A stretch of DNA of 60,643 nucleotides from contig CAYHLC010000002.1 in assembly GCA_964357395.1 (NCBI GenBank), positions 107,033 to 167,675 of the forward strand, read 5' to 3'. A program made the translations under genes and the position numbers. This stretch comes from an uncultured Candidatus Saccharibacteria bacterium. Lineage in GTDB: Bacteria; Patescibacteriota; Minisyncoccia; Phycocordibacterales; Phycocordibacteraceae. Each line of letters begins with the position of its first letter. Positions within the stretch are counted from its first letter, which is position 1. Below, piece by piece: positions 7,470 through 55,049 of this stretch. The notes beneath the pieces were generated by a model. It worked only from the letters and a program-made list of their open reading frames with translations, did not search any database and was not told the origin of the DNA.

Positions 7470-7496
7470 AAAAACCCCGCTTTCGGCGGGGCTTTT
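7470..7496 (-). terminator. intrinsic terminator after 7509..7832
   Basis: GCCCCGC-CGAAA-GCGGGG followed by UUUUU on the minus strand. Confidence 0.75.
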
Positions 7497-13446: not shown

Positions 13447-13877
13447 ACACTAACAACTACAGTGGCGGTGGAGCCGTCGAGGCTGATGGGCACCTGATGG
13501 GTGCCTTTTTGCTTTATTGGGTGGTCGAGTAGAACGGCCGACTCGGGCACGGTGACGCTGAGCTCTGACTTAAGGGCGGTAACGATGTCGGACTCGTGCA
13601 GCGACTTGAACAGGGTTCCTGTCTCGCTCGACTTCGCTGTTATCGTAATAGTCTTGCCATCGATCTGCGCTAGTACTGCGCGCGCCTGCGCAGCGCCCTG
13701 GTCTGCCCTGCCCTTGGCCTCCGCAGCAGCCTTCTCATACTTCTTCAGGTTGTCTGCAGTACCCGGCACCGCCTTGCCCTGCGGAATCAGGACGTTCATT
13801 GCGTAGCCGTCCGCTACAGTAATCAGCTGCCCCCGCACCCCCACCTTCTTTACATCAATTGTGAGTATCACCTTCAT
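13443..13877 (-). CDS. rplI: 50S ribosomal protein L9
   Basis: MKVILTIDVKKVGVRGQLITVADGYAMNVLIPQGKAV N-terminal domain. Confidence 0.93.
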   Translation of the reverse strand: MKVILTIDVKKVGVRGQLITVADGYAMNVLIPQGKAVPGTADNLKKYEKAAAEAKGRADQGAAQARAVLAQIDGKTITITAKSSETGTLFKSLHESDIVTALKSELSVTVPESAVLLDHPIKQKGTHQVPISLDGSTATVVVSV

Positions 13878-22825: not shown

Positions 22826-22836
22826 CGGAAAGCCAC

Positions 22837-22860
22837 AAAACCCGCCTAGTGGCGGGTTTT
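22837..22860 (+). terminator. intrinsic terminator
   Basis: AAAACCCGCC-TAGT-GGCGGGTTTT. Confidence 0.8.
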
Positions 22861-22877
22861 GTGTTATATTTAGAGCC

Positions 22878-23330
22878 ATGATTCAGAACACTATTTCGAC
22901 TGATTTGATAACCGCTATGAAGGCAAAGGAGATGCTCCGAGTGGAGGTGCTGCGAGGCCTCAAGGCGGCCTTCACCAACGAGCTGGTCGCCACCAAGCGG
23001 ATGCCGACAGACCCCCTCCCCGACGAGGACGCGCTCGGCGTGATCAGACGAGAGGTCAAAAAGCGCAAGGAGTCCATAGAGGCCTTCACCAACGGCAACA
23101 GGCCTGAGCTCGCAGAAAAGGAGCTGCAGGAGATAGCCATCCTCGCACCCTACCTCCCCGCCATGATGAGCCGCGAAGATATCGCCAAGATCGCGGTTGC
23201 GAAGAAGATCGAGATGAACGTCTCAGATAAGAAAGACATGGGCAAGTTTATGGGCGCACTTATGAAGGACCTGAGGGGCAAGGCAGATGGTGATGATGTA
23301 AAGGATGTGGTCGCAGGACTATTTATATGA
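22878..23330 (+). CDS. yqeY: GatB/YqeY domain protein
   Basis: LITAMKAKEMLRVEVLRGLKAAF and the overall 150-aa YqeY layout. Confidence 0.85.
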   Translation: MIQNTISTDLITAMKAKEMLRVEVLRGLKAAFTNELVATKRMPTDPLPDEDALGVIRREVKKRKESIEAFTNGNRPELAEKELQEIAILAPYLPAMMSREDIAKIAVAKKIEMNVSDKKDMGKFMGALMKDLRGKADGDDVKDVVAGLFI

Positions 23331-23455
23331 AATTCGGCTCAGAAAGCGCAGCGGACGACAAAAAGGACTCGGAGCCCACACCTGCTCCACCTGAGCCAGA
23401 GCCAGAAGATGAACCGAAGCCAAGCGGCCCTGATTGGTGGAAGCGATATAACTAG
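23327..23455 (+). CDS. possible 42-aa acidic Pro-rich peptide
   Basis: Hand-translated MKFGSESAADDKKDSEPTPAPPEPEPEDEPKPSGPDWWKRYN. ATGA overlap with yqeY. Ends 8 nt before the terminator. Confidence 0.3.
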   Translation: MKFGSESAADDKKDSEPTPAPPEPEPEDEPKPSGPDWWKRYN

Positions 23456-23462
23456 TAAAATC

Positions 23463-23488
23463 AAAAACCCGGCGAACGCCGGGTTTTT
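23463..23488. terminator. bidirectional intrinsic terminator
   Basis: AAAAACCCGGCG-AA-CGCCGGGTTTTT. Confidence 0.8.
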
Positions 23489-23504
23489 AGTTACTCTACT
23501 GGAG

Positions 23505-35716: not shown

Positions 35717-37156
35717 TTAGTATGCCTGCGCAAAGAGCCAGCGGTACCCCGCCTCCTTGCCGCAATAGACACACGTACCCATTTCTGGTTGCGCATCGAT
35801 AGGTAGGCAGCGGGTGGTGGCCTTCGTCTCTTCCTTAATCTTTTTCTCGCATTCGTCGCTCTCGCACCAATGTGCCTTGATGAATCCACGATCATTCTCA
35901 AGAATGCGCTTGAACTCGTCGTACGAATCTGCCGAGCGTGTATTTGTCATAAGGAACTTTTCTGCCTCTGCATAGAGGTTTTGCTGTATATCTGTGAGCA
36001 GCTTTGCAACCGTTGCTTCCAAATCCGCAAGAGTGCAGCTCGACTTCTCACCAGTATCGCGCCTGACAAGTGTTACCGTACCTTGCTCAACTTCGCGTCC
36101 ACCAAGCTCAATCCGAATTGGAACACCCCTCAGCTCCCAATGGTTAATCTTTGCACCTAGGGTGCTATTGTCGCCATCATCGATATGTATGCGAACCCCT
36201 TTCGCCTTAAGCGCGTCCTCGATCTTCTCCGCGTAGGCAATAAGCTCTACCTCAGGCTTGACCGGTATGACGACTACCTGGATTGGTGCTAGGTTTGGTG
36301 GGAGCCTGAGCCCTCCATCATCGCCGTGCGCCATGATAACTGCACCGATTGAACGCGTTGAGAACCCCCAACTCGTCTGCCATACATGCTCATTCTTGCC
36401 GTCCTTCGTTTGGAACTCAATGCCAAAGGACTTTGAGAAGTTCTGGCCCAAATCGTGCGAAGTGCAGCCCTGCAAGGCCTTGCCACCCGGCATAAGCATC
36501 TCGTACGTCAGCGATGCATCGGCACCTGCAAACTTTTCTGACTCAGACTTCTGCCCCATGTAGCCCGGGAGCGCAAAAAGCTTTTTGTACACATCGGCGT
36601 ACATATTGATGCCCCAATTCGTCATCTCCCACGACTCATCATGCGTCGCGTGTGCGGTGTGTCCTTCCTGCCACAGAAACTCAGTCGTGCGGAAGAAGAG
36701 GTACGTACGCTTTTCCCATCTGACCACATTGTTCCACTGGTTGATCATGAGTGGTAGATCGCGCCATGAGTGCACCCAGCGCGCGAATGCGTCATACATG
36801 ATGGTCTCTGATGTTGGGCGCACAACGACTTTCTCGCTCAGTTCCTCGCCACCACCGATCGTAACGACGGCTAGCTCGGGCGAGAATCCCTCAACGTGCT
36901 TCTCTTCCTTCTTGAGGAGTGCCTCAGGAATAAAAAGCGGGAAGTATGCGTTCGATACCCCACGGTCCTTGATCCGTGCGTCCATCTCCTTCTGGATTAG
37001 CTCCCAAATGGCATAGCCATACGGTCGGTAGATCATGGTGCCCTTGACCGGGCCATAATCTGCTAGCTCTGCCTGCAAAACAACCTTGTTGTACCACTCC
37101 GACACATCCTCGGACTTCAGTGGCAAATCTCGTTTTTTCTGTACCATACGTCTCAT
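35717..37156 (-). CDS. proS: proline--tRNA ligase, archaeal/eukaryotic-like type
   Basis: Class IIa core, about 480 aa without an INS editing domain, C-terminal Cys-rich zinc domain ending FAQAY. An alternative ATG at 37147 lies 10 nt after TATACT. Confidence 0.93.
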   Translation of the reverse strand: MRRMVQKKRDLPLKSEDVSEWYNKVVLQAELADYGPVKGTMIYRPYGYAIWELIQKEMDARIKDRGVSNAYFPLFIPEALLKKEEKHVEGFSPELAVVTIGGGEELSEKVVVRPTSETIMYDAFARWVHSWRDLPLMINQWNNVVRWEKRTYLFFRTTEFLWQEGHTAHATHDESWEMTNWGINMYADVYKKLFALPGYMGQKSESEKFAGADASLTYEMLMPGGKALQGCTSHDLGQNFSKSFGIEFQTKDGKNEHVWQTSWGFSTRSIGAVIMAHGDDGGLRLPPNLAPIQVVVIPVKPEVELIAYAEKIEDALKAKGVRIHIDDGDNSTLGAKINHWELRGVPIRIELGGREVEQGTVTLVRRDTGEKSSCTLADLEATVAKLLTDIQQNLYAEAEKFLMTNTRSADSYDEFKRILENDRGFIKAHWCESDECEKKIKEETKATTRCLPIDAQPEMGTCVYCGKEAGYRWLFAQAY

Positions 37157-37180
37157 TAGTATACCTTCATCTGCTAATAA

Positions 37181-37513
37181 TTACCCAAGCCTTGCACCAT
37201 TCGGAATATCCTGGTCCGGTACTGCAAGGACGACACTGCCGTCCTCTCGATAAAAGCCTGTTGTCAATACTTCAGATACAAAAGGTCCTATCCCCCGCGG
37301 GGGTAGGTTGGTGACACAAATCACTTTTTTATTCAAAAGCTGCTCTTTGGTATAGAGATCTGTGATACGAGCGCTTGAGCTCTTCTTCCCAACTTCTGCG
37401 CCAAGATCTATGACAAGTTTGTACGCCGCCTTCTTTGCCTCAGGAAAGTCGTCGACTTCGATGATTGTCCCGACTCGTATCTCTATTTCATTGAACTCTT
37501 CAATAGTAGCCAT
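37181..37513 (-). CDS. csaA: CsaA/EMAP-type tRNA-binding domain protein
   Basis: IEIRVGTIIEVDDFPEAKKAAYKLVIDLG and VICVTNLPPR strings of the OB-fold tRNA-binding domain. Confidence 0.88.
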   Translation of the reverse strand: MATIEEFNEIEIRVGTIIEVDDFPEAKKAAYKLVIDLGAEVGKKSSSARITDLYTKEQLLNKKVICVTNLPPRGIGPFVSEVLTTGFYREDGSVVLAVPDQDIPNGARLG

Positions 37514-37684
37514 GATTATTTGTTAGTTGCTAAAGTACTTTCTCCTACAATCGTCACATATCAGTGACCCAAACACGTACTGCGAGGAATAGACAGATAT
37601 CAACCTCCCGCATAGCGCGCATGGATAGAGTGAGTGCGATCCTTCGTGGGCCCCATATAGTTTCTGATTACTCTTATAACGCTT

Positions 37685-37807
37685 CTAGTATCTACGCCTG
37701 AACAGCTTTTGGATCCATAATCTGAAGCCTAGCGCCATGAAGAATGCCAGACCCGCAATATAGTTGTCCTGCTTTTTCTGCTCGGGAGTTCTTTCCTTCC
37801 TTGCCAT
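37685..37807 (-). CDS. possible 40-aa single-TM peptide, first ORF after the T-box leader
   Basis: Hand-translated MARKERTPEQKKQDNYIAGLAFFMALGFRLWIQKLFRRRY. AAGGA lies 7 nt upstream of the ATG. Confidence 0.35.
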   Translation of the reverse strand: MARKERTPEQKKQDNYIAGLAFFMALGFRLWIQKLFRRRY

Positions 37808-37825
37808 TTTTGTTCCTTAGGTACT

Positions 37826-38067
37826 ACTAACCCCCAACAGCTCGACTACTGGAGACAGAGGCGGGGGTAGCCGCGGTACCACTCTGTTTTGCCCAACAAA
37901 AAACGCCATGCCGGCGTGTGTTAGGTCTTAGCGCTCCTTCCTTCGGCTATCCTCCAGATGACACACTTTGGCTTGTTTTTACGGTTGCCCTCCGTCAGAT
38001 TTATGTCCGAAGACTTTCATCTGCAGCTCCCTTGGCTGGGTACCAAGATCAAAGCCTGTATTCAACT
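37826..38067 (-). promoter_or_regulatory. T-box riboswitch-like leader with proline specifier
   Basis: T-box core AGAGUGGUACCGCGG (37871..37885) sits inside the antiterminator CAGAG[UGGUACC]GCGG-CUACCC-CCGC-CUCUG (37856..37886). K-turn hairpin with loop UACCCAG at 38025..38056. Stem III at 37903..37917. Confidence 0.75.
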
Positions 38068-38073
38068 CGCCCT

Positions 38074-38102
38074 ACTCTACCCCCTTCCCTCCCAATAGTC
38101 AA
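38074..38102 (-). promoter_or_regulatory. promoter of the T-box leader
   Basis: Minus strand TTGACT-17-TAGAGT. Confidence 0.55.
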
Positions 38103-38107
38103 CCAAC

Positions 38108-38131
38108 TCATATATGATCACCCATATATGA
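38108..38131. promoter_or_regulatory. double palindrome operator, site B
   Basis: TCATATATGA and CCATATATGA with centres 14 bp apart, 6 nt upstream of the T-box promoter -35. Confidence 0.6.
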
Positions 38132-38166
38132 TATGTTTTTCACTATAGCTCTTAGGGCACAGCGCT

Positions 38167-38604
38167 TTAGTTGCGGTACTGCTTCTTCGGTTTTGGATCG
38201 GGAAAGAGGAGGAAGTGCAGCGGGTACTTGCGCTTCAGTGCGGCAAACGAAAACGGATCGGCCTTAGCCTCGCGGCGCACCGCACGCCTATCCATCTCCT
38301 TTTCCAGCTCCGCTATCACTTTTTCGTATCCTGGGAACTGGTCTTTGAGCCAGTGTTCCACTCGCGAAACAGTACTCAGTCCCACGAGCAGCTTGCGAGA
38401 GATCTCTGCGTGTGACATACCCTGCATCAATAGTCTTGCGATCCAGATGCGTCTACCAAGCATGACGCGTTCGCTGGGAGTGAGTAGGTCGCGCAGGAAC
38501 GCTTTCATACCGTCGCGCCCTTTGGCACTGGCTGCCGCAGTGTAGAGCATGTCAAGCGTATTTATTCTTTCCTGCTCCGTGAGGTCTGTCATTTTCTTCT
38601 TCAT
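38167..38604 (-). CDS. TrpR-family YerC/YecD-like DNA-binding protein
   Basis: FLRDLLTPSERVMLGRRIWIARLLMQGMSHAEISRKLLVGLSTVSRV matches the YerC/YecD helix-turn-helix layout. Confidence 0.75.
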   Translation of the reverse strand: MKKKMTDLTEQERINTLDMLYTAAASAKGRDGMKAFLRDLLTPSERVMLGRRIWIARLLMQGMSHAEISRKLLVGLSTVSRVEHWLKDQFPGYEKVIAELEKEMDRRAVRREAKADPFSFAALKRKYPLHFLLFPDPKPKKQYRN

Positions 38605-38618
38605 ACCCCAAAATCATA

Positions 38619-38642
38619 TCATATATGATCACTCATATATGA
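38619..38642. promoter_or_regulatory. double palindrome operator, site A
   Basis: Two perfect TCATATATGA palindromes 14 bp apart, overlapping the predicted promoter of the YerC-like gene. Confidence 0.6.
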
Positions 38643-38684
38643 GTCATTTTAAGCAGTGGGAGTTCTGCAGCTCGAGGGGTGGGG

Positions 38685-39767
38685 TTAGCCGATGAGGCGG
38701 GAGATGTCGTGCCAAGTGACGAGCACCATTAGGAGGATGAGCGCCAGGAATCCTCCGGCGTTGATGAGCTGCACAATCGTCTGCGGCACGGCCTTGCGGC
38801 GCCAAGTCTCTATCGCAAGGAGTGCGAGGCGGCCGCCGTCGAGCGCAGGGAGCGGCAGTAGGTTGATGATCGCAAGGTTCAGCGAGATGATGGCCGCGAG
38901 GACAAGTACCTGTCCGGCGCCAAACACGCTCGCGTCCCCTACGAGGCCTGCAATACCAACGGGGCCAGATACATCCTCCAAGGATGCCGAGAGCGTGAAG
39001 GCGTTGCCAAGGAGCGTCAGGAGCCCGACAAGTATCTGCCACAGAGCAGTGACGGTCTGCACTGCTGCCTCGCCGAGCGCAGTCAACGGGTCCAGGACCT
39101 GCATGCCAAGCATTGCAGAAGCTATACCGATACCAAAGCGAGTCGGCTCCTCTGGCACTAAGCCTGTAACCGGAGTGATCTCCTTTTGTTCGACTACGCC
39201 GGAGCGCTCGTAGGTCAGGGTGAGTGGCTCGTTAGAAAAGGCAATTGCAGCGGGCACGTCGCTCGCCTTTGTTATTGGGGTTACTGCGCTGCCGCGAGTA
39301 ATGCTCACCAACTTGTCTCCTATCTCAAGTCCCGCTGCTCCGGCGGGACTGTCCTCCAACACGCGAACGACAACGACTCGGGCGTCGCGAAGCTCGGTAG
39401 AATCATCGGTCACTACTGCGGGTATACCAATACTGAGTGCTATCCAAAACGCTAGGAACCCCAAAACCACGTTCATGCCTGGGCCAGCGACGAGCGTGAG
39501 TGCTTGCAGCCACCACGATTTTCTGCCGAACGAATCAGGATGATCTGCATTCTCGCCATCCTCCCCGACAATGCGCACAAAGCCGCCAAACGGCAACGCA
39601 TTGATTGTGTACTCGGTGTCCCCAATCTTTGTGCCCCAGAGCCTCGGTGGGAAGCCGATGCCGAACTCTGGGACCTTCATCCCTGACCACTTGGCAGCAA
39701 AAAAATGCCCCAGCTCGTGCCCAATAATGAGTACTAAAAGAATAACGATAAAGAGTAGTACTGACAT
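38685..39767 (-). CDS. rseP: RIP metalloprotease RseP (M50 site-2 protease) with PDZ domain
   Basis: HELGHFFAAK (HExxH) and the NLLPLPALDGG motif. Confidence 0.93.
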   Translation of the reverse strand: MSVLLFIVILLVLIIGHELGHFFAAKWSGMKVPEFGIGFPPRLWGTKIGDTEYTINALPFGGFVRIVGEDGENADHPDSFGRKSWWLQALTLVAGPGMNVVLGFLAFWIALSIGIPAVVTDDSTELRDARVVVVRVLEDSPAGAAGLEIGDKLVSITRGSAVTPITKASDVPAAIAFSNEPLTLTYERSGVVEQKEITPVTGLVPEEPTRFGIGIASAMLGMQVLDPLTALGEAAVQTVTALWQILVGLLTLLGNAFTLSASLEDVSGPVGIAGLVGDASVFGAGQVLVLAAIISLNLAIINLLPLPALDGGRLALLAIETWRRKAVPQTIVQLINAGGFLALILLMVLVTWHDISRLIG

Positions 39768-55020: not shown

Positions 55021-55049
55021 AAAAAGCCCCCTCTCCGAGGGGGCTTTTT
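55021..55049 (+). terminator. intrinsic terminator
   Basis: AAAAAGCCCCCTC-TCCG-GAGGGGGCTTTTT. Confidence 0.8.

Follow-up and report, generated by a model that had tools for sequence, protein, structure and literature searches.

A probable proline-specific T-box leader with a miniaturised tRNA-decoding half upstream of csaA and proS, and its relatives in Patescibacteria

The genes csaA and proS lie on the minus strand of the window (the whole stretch of 60,643 nucleotides analyzed here, from an uncultured Patescibacterium of groundwater), and the question raised by this locus is whether the leader RNA ahead of them is a T-box, which amino acid it would read, and how a tRNA signal would reach the genes. 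An earlier note, made from the letters alone, had proposed a T-box with a proline specifier and an ultrashort Stem I. The sequence features that it listed are all present on the minus strand at the positions it gave, and the features of the locus are collected in Table 1. Our results point to a true T-box leader that is specific for proline and has a miniaturised tRNA-decoding half, a reading that we consider probable.

Table 1. Positions, strand and description of the features at the csaA-proS locus.
Feature	Coordinates	Strand	Description and basis
Operator-like double palindrome	38108..38131		TCATATATGA-N4-(T/C)CATATATGA; 5 nt upstream of the T-box -35
Sigma-70-type promoter	38074..38102	-	TTGACT-17-TAGAGT; consensus scan; predicted start near 38067
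T-box leader	37854..38061	-	RF00230 positions 1-219; RF00230 alignment
Ultrashort Stem I	38026..38055	-	C-stem GC/GC, K-turn UUUGAU/GGA, 5-bp CUUGG/CCAAG, 7-nt apical loop (GC-UUUGAU-CUUGG-UACCCAG-CCAAG-GGA-GC); sequence
Apical specifier loop UACCCAG	38036..38042	-	CCC (38040-38038, then A) or CCA (38039-38037, then G)
Stem II	37996..38023	-	CAGAU-GAAA-GUC-UUCG-GAC-AUAA-AUCUG; RF00230 alignment
Stem IIA/B pseudoknot	37970..37995	-	ACGG-AGGGCAA-CCGU (37995..37981), loop GGC pairs with GCC 37972-37970; F-box-like CCGUAA
Linker hairpin, lineage-specific	37916..37966	-	GUGUGU...ACACAC; part of a 64-nt insertion relative to RF00230
Extended Stem III	37892..37925	-	CCUAACA/UGUUGGG around ACGCC-GGCAU-GGCGU; U-run 37898-37902
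Discriminator/antiterminator	37856..37886	-	A1 CAGAG/CUCUG, bulge UGGUACC (37881-37875), A2 GCGG/CCGC, loop CUACCC
Competing (OFF) helix, 3' strand	37820..37835	-	GGGGGUUAG pairs with CUACCCCC (37870-37863); GUACC pairs with bulge GGUAC (37880-37876)
40-aa ORF	37685..37807	-	UAAGGA-N6-AUG start; probably no gene
csaA	37181..37513	-	CsaA family, tRNA-binding fold, 110 aa; PF01588; TIGR02222 140.5 bits
proS	35717..37147	-	Type-I (archaeal-like) prolyl-tRNA synthetase, 476 aa from the M4 start; Pfam

The downstream genes are those that had been proposed, a tRNA-binding CsaA and proS. In addition to its TIGR02222 match, the csaA product matches Bacillus subtilis CsaA (2nzh) with E=1.4e-31, and proS matches TIGR00408 with 560.9 bits as well as Pfam, the database copy (P0145) having the same 476 aa. 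As to the nearest CsaA homologues (P0003, P0005 and P0006), those for which DNA was available lie in other genomic contexts. Just upstream of proS lies a TATACT box resembling a -10 element, from which proS may be transcribed independently of the T-box leader. The proposed leader promoter was recovered as well, and the promoters of related leaders follow the pattern TTGACx-17-TAnnnT about 10-11 nt upstream of the K-turn. What did not hold is the 40-aa membrane peptide named as the first ORF: it is not called as a gene in one assembly of this population (L145) and has no homologue among 5.8e9 proteins or in 153 loci searched by tblastn, and it was rejected as a supported gene.

RF00230 aligns end to end with the leader at 40.1 bits (E=2.1e-07 for a 651-nt region, E=2e-05 when both strands of the entire 60.6-kb window are searched), and this is the sole T-box-like match in the window. 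The score lies below the RF00230 gathering score of 93, a finding that the earlier note would have counted against a T-box, because 9 nt of the leader stand for the 76 model positions of the distal Stem I. The shortfall is uninformative, since all related leaders, including those with perfect terminators, fall below 93 too (30-75 bits; 30.5-75.1), so that the threshold does not discriminate. The Stem I deletion costs about 50 bits in each family member. An identical leader is present in L145 and L146, which are independent assemblies from one population, so that it is no assembly artefact.

Homologous leaders were found upstream of proS or csaA-proS at ten other Patescibacterial loci (L004, L014, L019, L064, L065, L066, L077, L078, L150/151 and L153), and a structure-based scan found no CPR members beyond these. 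Six have a very short Stem I like that of the window and four an intermediate one (L004, L065, L066 and L077). An nhmmer search of all loci with the leader of the window as query gave no sequence-level homologue, and insertions in Stem II, the linker and Stem III kept MAFFT from aligning this leader with the others. RF00230 alignments were therefore used together with a core alignment that was built by hand, fitted by hand to the structure and verified by code, in which 98.5% of cells are paired, compared with 39-52% when the partners are slid. Both sides change in 13 of its 20 pairs, and none of 500 shuffles equalled the observed covariation values. The ten leaders and that of the window are one family. 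L150 and L153 have the gene order of the window (RseP ... T-box-csaA-proS ... MreB), and a T-box is present at each csaA-proS locus. The covariation check suggested for the regions upstream of proS thus came out in favour of the T-box: the helices of the K-turn hairpin and the antiterminator covary while the bulge is invariant. With a full-length RF00230 alignment and compensatory changes in every helix across ten leaders, the window leader is almost certainly a T-box.

At the 5' end, the predicted fold places the K-turn (GC-UUU-GA-U ... G-GA-GC) on model positions 7-18 and a 3' GGAGC with high posterior probability, and 10 leaders keep its GA motif at the Stem I base. This is the K-turn hairpin described earlier. 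The helix above it covaries among the relatives (GGGG/CCCU, GCGG/CCGC, AGGG/CCCU and UGGG/CCCA). The long Stem I whose distal AG bulge and terminal loop (IDTM) touch the tRNA elbow is absent here, and likewise in L014, L064, L078, L150 and L153; the window leader therefore has no elbow-binding platform. The likeness to actinobacterial ileS leaders that had been pointed out corresponds to class III of PMC10482949, and we hold with high confidence that the architecture is of this short-Stem-I, class-III-like kind.

The specifier is in every leader a proline codon followed by a purine (CCC-G, CCC-A or CCA-A/G, with CCU-A in L019). The six other short-Stem-I relatives carry CCC or CCA and then the purine in the apical loop, the four intermediate ones have a classical specifier loop with GAA-CCC-A or GAA-CCA-R, and all of them lie upstream of proS or csaA-proS. 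These observations bear out the proposed proline specifier, and the leader is very likely specific for proline. The loop had been read as CCC followed by A, which is indeed a proline codon, but its exact register did not stand as firmly. In the relatives' apical loops (UCUCCCG twice, UUUCCCG, UACCCCG and AUCCCA) the codon and purine sit at the 3' end throughout, and because the codon there is formed by the three nucleotides that precede the final purine of the loop, the specifier of the window leader may be CCA-G and not CCC-A. Either one is a proline codon, and the usage of proline codons (CCG 136, CCA 113, CCC 90, CCT 78) does not decide between them. The loop has 7 nt in the window and four relatives and 6 nt in L064; pairing of U38042 with G38036 would reduce that of the window to 5 nt. 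A second Pro-type CCU-A at 37925..37922 was rejected as a specifier, as its letters belong to extended Stem III, whose 5' strand they form.

The hairpin with an internal loop and the pseudoknot noted downstream of Stem I are both present, Stem II and IIA being placed by the RF00230 alignment and IIB being covarying. The purine-rich internal loop of Stem II (GAAA/AUAA) lies at the expected place of the S-turn, and a canonical AGUA/GAA S-turn is not evident. IIB takes the forms GGC/GCC, CCC/GGG, CCCG/CGGG, UCUCCG/CGGAGA, UCGA/UCGA and AAUU/AAUU among the leaders, with three of three pairs changing on both sides among the relatives. The linker hairpin is shorter in the relatives (GACUGAA...UCAGUC). 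Extended Stem III is flanked by conserved purines, UAAG before and CAAAA after; compared with the relatives' sequences, the window has these discriminator hallmarks, UAAG 5' of Stem III and AAAA 3' of it. The T-box core itself has the canonical antiterminator geometry claimed for it, with a predicted free energy of -8.5 kcal/mol; the bulge UGGUACC is invariant in 11 of 11 leaders, and A1 and A2 covary. The UGGU of the bulge predicts a tRNA with A73, and bacterial tRNA-Pro has A73. No tRNA-Pro gene was found in the window or in 60 loci searched.

By the established T-box mechanism, the anticodon of tRNA-Pro would pair with the loop codon, presumably with help from Stem II, as happens in the class III T-boxes of Actinobacteria. 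The 3'-ACCA of an uncharged tRNA would pair with the UGGU of the bulge and lock the antiterminator; otherwise the segment GGGGGUUAG..GUACC would invade, pairing with the A2 loop, the 3' strand and the bulge. In the relatives, where the switch stands directly before csaA-proS or proS, this choice would drive a hairpin and U-tract terminator and thus attenuate transcription. In the genome studied here, tRNA sensing is probably intact, and its coupling to expression would be weak, unconventional or recently lost. Whether the window T-box is still a working regulator of csaA (and proS) we judge to be evenly balanced.

This judgement depends on the expression platform. The competing helix described earlier, CUACCCCC/GGGGGUUAG, is present, and no U-tract follows it (the tail is UAAGGAACAAAAAUG), though canonical intrinsic terminators are used elsewhere in the organism. 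Within the 113-nt platform the competing fold is predicted at -26.2 kcal/mol compared with -9.6 for the isolated antiterminator, and with the downstream sequence included the ON and OFF states are nearly isoenergetic (-86.3 and -83.7 kcal/mol). Constrained partition-function folding leaves the Shine-Dalgarno (SD) sequence and AUG of the adjacent ORF about 0.9 unpaired in both states, by which SD sequestration was rejected as an output. A Rho signal was looked for as a C-rich, G-poor rut-like tract downstream, and none was found (C/G 0.46-1.2; window mean 1.01). Between the competing helix and csaA lie 340 nt of non-conserved sequence unique to this locus, and the 177-nt spacer in front of csaA shows no unusual degree of structure (z=-0.33) and has no Rfam match. 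The platform is therefore non-canonical, as had been stated for the window, having neither a U-tract terminator nor SD sequestration; this is, however, peculiar to the locus, as 9 of 11 leaders carry canonical hairpin and U-tract terminators, the window and L014 being the only ones without. The stability of the relatives' terminators is 2-3 times that of the antiterminator, and 5-7 U follow them. No close ortholog of the window leader was found.

One explanation is that the T-box is vestigial: it might descend from a terminator-type csaA-proS T-box such as those of L150 and L153, and have lost its terminator by rearrangement or by insertion of the 340-nt spacer, leaving constitutive readthrough and, if the loss was recent, an intact look. 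The missing U-tract, the near-isoenergetic states with an unmasked SD, the spacer and the -10-like box of proS are all consistent with this. Additionally, the closest ProRS relatives (78-80% identity) have neither csaA nor a T-box, and the polymorphic stop codon of the TrpR-like neighbour hints at local decay. Neutral decay would, however, be expected to strike the sensor of about 200 nt as well, and its decoding and discriminator helices and motifs are all intact, with no mismatches; there is also a competing helix whose pairing includes the bulge itself. Loss of output might explain the locus, though we regard this as somewhat unlikely.

Control at the level of translation appears less probable still. 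The OFF helix, whose 3' strand abuts the start region of the 40-aa ORF, stops 12 nt short of the AUG at 37807 and could block loading of the 30S subunit at a stand-by site; a tRNA-stabilised antiterminator would free the region, and translation of the short ORF would promote csaA-proS expression. L014, the other terminator-less leader, can pair its T-box strand AGGUGGU with GCCACCU at csaA codons 2-4, which would suit such control. Yet the predicted accessibility of SD and AUG is equal in both states, the ORF has neither a homologue nor a gene call, 170 nt without obvious coupling lie between its end and csaA, and SD sequences are rarely used in this organism, so we consider stand-by control unlikely.

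The Patescibacterial (csaA-)proS leaders could also be transcription-terminating T-boxes without elbow contact for which CsaA, as a tRNA-Pro-binding partner acting in trans, replaces or modulates the platform, with this partner or another output controlling the copy in the window, which has neither terminator nor SD masking. At each csaA-proS locus seen, csaA follows directly on the T-box. We regard such a partnership as improbable; if true, it would make a protein-assisted, self-regulating T-box.

Early termination is very improbable. The inner hairpin of Stem III with its U-run (ACGCCG-GCA-UGGCGU and U6, 37917-37898) scores as a terminator-like site and would, as an intrinsic terminator, release a decoding-only RNA of about 170 nt serving as a tRNA-Pro decoy or attenuating the operon. 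It is the sole such site in 37000-38700 and ranks with genuine-looking terminators of the genome, and the relatives have no U-run after Stem III, which would make the device locus-specific. The hairpin has only 6 bp, however, about 1.4 such sites per 1.7 kb are expected by chance, the U-run is absorbed into the helix CCUAACA/UGUUGGG, and an intact discriminator downstream would be pointless. Chance resemblance with no T-box at all, for which the score under the gathering score and a whole-leader minimum free energy that does not surpass shuffled sequences (z=+0.48) might speak, is effectively refuted by the window-wide E-value over the full model and by the covarying leaders that ten other loci have in the corresponding place.

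The proline T-box can thus be set against the known classes. Class III is defined by a short Stem I without IDTM, a specifier in an apical loop of five or six nucleotides, a Stem II whose S-turn docks onto the specifier-anticodon duplex, and control mostly of translation initiation through SD sequestration (PMC10482949). Short Stem I forms have been described for actinobacterial ileS, with class III examples in Mycobacterium tuberculosis, M. smegmatis and Nocardia farcinica (Sherwood et al., 2015; PDB 6UFG and 6UFM, as cited in PMC7583486), and the short-Stem-I model of TBDB was searched only in Actinobacteria (PMC7778990). The window leader shares with these the K-turn base, the short Stem I without IDTM, the apical specifier followed by a purine, the retained Stem II and IIA/B pseudoknot, and a standard discriminator with a UGGN bulge. 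It differs in reading Pro and not Ile, in preceding csaA-proS and not ileS, in belonging to Patescibacteria and not Actinobacteria, and in its 7-nt loop, compared with 5-6 nt in the literature. Stem II of the relatives has only 3-4 bp with a GAUGA(G) loop, and no SD is sequestered, the relatives having intrinsic terminators and the window neither. The architecture is thus class-III-like, in a new phylum and with a new amino acid. The literature searched gave no T-box from Patescibacteria, CPR or Parcubacteria, which is no proof of novelty.

The four intermediate leaders share with the class IV ileS leader of Actinomyces odontolyticus (PMC10482949) the AGUA/GAA S-turn specifier loop, the 4-bp stem, the GNRA cap and the lack of IDTM, but are Pro-specific and terminator-coupled; in the window even this remnant is lost. 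Class I proS T-boxes of Clostridia and Bacillota (seen at L020, L022, L024 and L028) precede the same gene, a type-I proS, with the same discriminator and a canonical terminator output, as in the CPR relatives. Their long Stem I of about 90 nt (L020 and L022) is absent in the CPR leaders, which accounts for the low RF00230 scores of the latter. The class II glyQS leaders of Bacillus and Geobacillus are also naturally reduced and transcriptional, but they drop Stem II and keep the long Stem I with the elbow platform, whereas the CPR leaders do the reverse.

The elbow-binding platform of Stem I has been held essential, for kinetic reasons, in transcription-terminating T-boxes and dispensable only in translational ones (PMC7583486). 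A family in which class III and class IV decoders are joined to textbook intrinsic terminators, in nine of its eleven leaders, runs against this view. If functional, these leaders would be natural counter-examples by which the kinetic argument is directly testable, and, at about 120-140 nt, very small natural scaffolds for structural studies and synthetic designs (L064 spans about 119 nt from K-turn to antiterminator). They would also add a deep-branching lineage with reduced genomes to the question of which T-box class came first. With scores so far under the gathering score, members are missed by standard annotation. The window copy matters mainly as the entry point to the family and as a possible case of a T-box losing or changing its output.

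A minor observation concerns the double palindrome upstream of the T-box promoter. A second copy lies at 38619-38642 inside the promoter of the neighbouring TrpR-like gene, itself carrying a polymorphic stop codon, and the two matches compare with 0 expected by chance.

The leader upstream of csaA and proS in the window aligns end to end with the Rfam T-box model RF00230 (model positions 1-219; window 38061..37854, minus strand) at 40.1 bits, with an E-value of 2.1e-07 on a 651-nt region and 2e-05 on the entire 60.6-kb window, where it is the only T-box-like match. The score is far below the curated gathering score of 93 bits, and an Rfam search of the window at that default threshold therefore returned tRNA-Glu only and left the leader unreported. 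The deficit arises because distal Stem I, 76 positions in the model, is reduced to 9 nt and because 64 nt are inserted between the pseudoknot and the discriminator. The leader is identical in L145 and L146, which were assembled independently from the same groundwater population (Hainich). This full-length alignment, together with covarying Patescibacterial relatives, confirms the observation of the earlier note, made from the sequence alone, that a T-box leader is present. Its interpretation is also supported, with corrections to the specifier register and the expression platform.

Features of the T-box leader and its upstream flank
Feature	Position	Strand	Detail
Double palindrome copy	38619-38642		inside TrpR/YerC-like gene promoter
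TrpR/YerC-like gene	38167-38604	-	
Double palindrome copy	38108-38131		5 nt upstream of T-box promoter -35
Sigma-70-type promoter	38102..38074	-	TTGACT-17-TAGAGT; ~210 nt of T-box match downstream
Stem I	38055-38026	-	GC / UUUGAU K-turn / CUUGG / loop UACCCAG / CCAAG / GGA / GC
Stem II	38023-37996	-	
Stem IIA	37995-37981	-	ACGG-AGGGCAA-CCGU; loop GGC pairs with GCC 37972-37970
Lineage-specific hairpin	37966-37916	-	
Extended Stem III	37925-37892	-	
Discriminator	37886-37856	-	CAGAG-[UGGUACC]-GCGG-CUACCC-CCGC-CUCUG
Competing strand	37835-37827	-	GGGGGUUAG; able to pair with CUACCCCC
GUACC	37824-37820	-	able to pair with bulge GGUAC

We drew 144 proS loci from collections of genomes and metagenomes, added more via ProRS and CsaA homologues, and screened them first by regular expression and second by a structure-based antiterminator scan. 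Ten Patescibacterial relatives of the window leader were found among these loci, six with a very short Stem I and four (L004, L065, L066 and L077) with an intermediate one. The K-turn layout of the window is shared by five of the six short types, whose helix and loop read GGGG-UCUCCCG-CCCU in L078, AGGG-UCUCCCG-CCCU in L150/151, GGGG-UACCCCG-CCCU in L153, GCGG-UUUCCCG-CCGC in L014 and GCGG-AUCCCA-CCGC in L064; L019 has a hairpin without a K-turn and the loop CUCCUAA. The intermediate type carries a classical specifier loop (AGUA...GAA-CCC-A or GAA-CCA-R), a 4-bp stem above it and a GNRA cap. All relatives match RF00230 over its full length, yet below the gathering score (short type 30.5-42.4 bits, intermediate type 66.4-75.1 bits). 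The T-box at L064:44-190 is complete but very small, with about 119 nt from the K-turn to the antiterminator end; it is without Stem III, and its 7-bp terminator and U7 lie immediately 5' of proS.

The shared paired modules were compared in a 60-column alignment, every string of which was asserted by code in the real sequences. Standard pairs fill 98.5% of cells, compared with 39-52% after a shift of the 3' partners by 1-3 columns, and this paired percentage leans towards the structure because the alignment was fitted to it by hand. None of 500 shuffles reached the observed pairing values. Both sides change in 13 of 20 pairs, and these changes can be read directly in the leader sequences. Covariation was seen in all three pairs of the IIB pseudoknot (GGC/GCC, CCC/GGG, CCCG/CGGG, UCUCCG/CGGAGA, UCGA/UCGA, AAUU/AAUU), in three of four Stem I pairs, and in A1 and A2, the helices flanking the bulge. 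The bulge UGGUACC itself and the CC of the specifier codon are invariant.

The earlier note read the specifier as CCC followed by A. In the five other K-turn loops of the short type, the codon directly precedes the final purine of the loop (UCU-CCC-G twice, UUU-CCC-G, UAC-CCC-G and AU-CCC-A), and in this register the window loop reads UAC-CCA-G. CCA also serves as the codon in L004 and L077, whose ProRS, at 69-71% identity, are the most similar among the T-box-bearing loci. CCC-A is possible, especially if U38042 pairs with G38036 to leave the pentaloop ACCCA. The predicted amino acid is proline in either register, and the cognate isoacceptor would have the anticodon GGG or UGG. Codon usage does not decide between CCC and CCA, and no tRNA-Pro gene was found in the window or the 60 fetched loci. 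The UGGU of the bulge predicts discriminator A73, and bacterial tRNA-Pro has an A73 discriminator, which fits.

In nine of the 11 leaders, a terminator with two to three times the stability of the antiterminator overlaps its 3' half and is followed by 5-7 U. Terminator and antiterminator are at -33.6 and -12.7 kcal/mol in L065, -29.0 and -13.6 in L078, -20.7 and -9.1 in L150, and -9.3 (then U7) and -4.1 in L064; U-tracts are also present in L153 and L019. These nine have the form of transcription attenuators. Only the window leader and L014 are without a terminator, and in the window the lack of a U-tract noted earlier is borne out, as UAAGGAACAAAAAUG follows the competing helix instead. Canonical terminators occur elsewhere in the window, e.g., at 7475-7491, 13488-13506, 22834-22863 and 55029-55043. 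The competing helix has a core of -12.6 kcal/mol, or -26.2 with the GGUAC/GUACC extension (113-nt platform), and the antiterminator -8.5 to -9.6 kcal/mol; with downstream sequence, the antiterminator (ON) and competing-helix (OFF) folds differ little in energy (-86.3 vs -83.7 kcal/mol). The Stem III tip ACGCCG-GCA-UGGCGU with UUUUU-G-UU (37898-37917, minus strand), which lies 5' of the T-box sequence, has the score of an intrinsic terminator, and this U-run is absent from the related leaders.

Shine-Dalgarno sequestration at the 40-aa ORF was rejected, as its UAAGGA/AUG is about 0.9 open in both ON and OFF by constrained partition-function folding. The ORF, previously proposed to encode a membrane peptide, is unsupported as a gene: no homologue turned up among 5.8e9 proteins or in the fetched loci, and it is not called in L145. 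There is no rut-like C-rich tract 3' of the T-box and no unusual structure in the 177-nt spacer before csaA. Shine-Dalgarno sequences are rare, being used by 7 of 38 long ORFs, and a -10-like box [TC]AnnnT ends 4-9 nt before the ATG in 19 of 38, against a 14% background (e.g., 16523+, 21943-, 23880+, 31491-, 40562-, 44318+ and 51598-), which points to widespread use of leaderless mRNAs in this organism. We conclude that the window sensor is probably intact, and that its output would be weak, unconventional or recently lost. At L014:1860-1935, the T-box strand AGGUGGU can pair with GCCACCU, codons 2-4 of csaA; this is a possible start-site sequestrator and hints at translational variants among the Patescibacterial proline leaders.

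The window ProRS shares 57-80% identity with MAG proteins that carry labels such as Parcubacteria, Uhrbacteria, Doudnabacteria and Shapirobacteria, and the source is a Patescibacteria (CPR) genome. The leader is followed by genes for a CsaA-family tRNA-binding-fold protein (PF01588; TIGR02222; B. subtilis CsaA 2nzh, E=1.4e-31) and a type-I ProRS (TIGR00408), then mreB, and is preceded by the TrpR/YerC-like gene and rseP. The window has the order RseP ... T-box-csaA-proS ... MreB in common with L150 and L153. A T-box is present at every locus where csaA immediately precedes proS (L004, L014, L065, L066, L077, L150/151, L153 and the window). Most screened loci with proS alone have none, including the closest ProRS relatives of the window (78-80% identity), whose proS appears leaderless. 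In L148:109-1160, the gene before a CsaA of 79% identity is ProB-like (AA_kinase+PUA); the link of the CsaA-type protein with proline genes is thus seen in more than one setting. For the window proS, the fourth codon (ATG 37147, minus strand) rather than the first is the probable start; the database copy has 476 aa. Since a TATACT box lies directly 5' of this start (within 37147-37170, minus strand), some transcription of proS may bypass the T-box.

Exactly two copies of the double palindrome TCATATATGA-N4-(T/C)CATATATGA are present in 60 kb, with 0 expected by chance. Both are probably operators, which suggests that a protein adds a second layer of control to the T-box operon. The window and L145 differ at a single position over 1,600 nt (38394), where AAG in the window is TAG in L145. 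This stop leaves the TrpR-like ORF of L145 in two parts of 70 and 64 aa, and the gene is either a polymorphic pseudogene or affected by a sequencing error.

Four T-box classes have been defined (PMC10482949). In class III, e.g., N. farcinica ileS, Stem I is short and has no distal elbow-binding platform (IDTM), an apical loop of five or six nucleotides holds the specifier, and Stem II is required, while class IV, e.g., A. odontolyticus ileS, has an intermediate Stem I; both "mostly" act on translation initiation (PMC10482949). The likeness to actinobacterial ileS drawn earlier agrees with class III in the decoder, which by analogy would work in the same way. The window leader differs from class III in five ways: in its phylum, in its amino acid and the operon that it regulates, in the size of the loop, in the form of Stem II and in its output. 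Its relatives couple the decoders of classes III and IV to intrinsic terminators. Clostridia proS T-boxes are likewise proline-specific but have a long Stem I, and such leaders also precede Bacillota ProRS homologues in the fetched loci (e.g., L020, L022, L024 and L028). The TBDB short-Stem-I model was searched in Actinobacteria and RF00230 hits only (PMC7778990), and within the full-text literature searched, we found no report of a T-box in Patescibacteria, CPR or Parcubacteria. While the window copy alone is of moderate value, the more valuable result is the Patescibacterial family of small proline T-boxes, which are without the elbow platform, mostly terminator-coupled, tightly tied to a CsaA-type tRNA-binding protein and undetected by standard annotation.

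A weak RsmY-like match at 23327-23487 (plus strand; E=0.061, with 24.6 bits falling far short of the gathering score, 57) adjoins tRNA-Glu and strong bidirectional terminators (22834-22863 and 23462-23489), and is probably due to chance. L019:8673-8996 holds a bacterial RNase P RNA at 95.9 bits, against a gathering score of 100, a further CPR RNA missed at standard thresholds.
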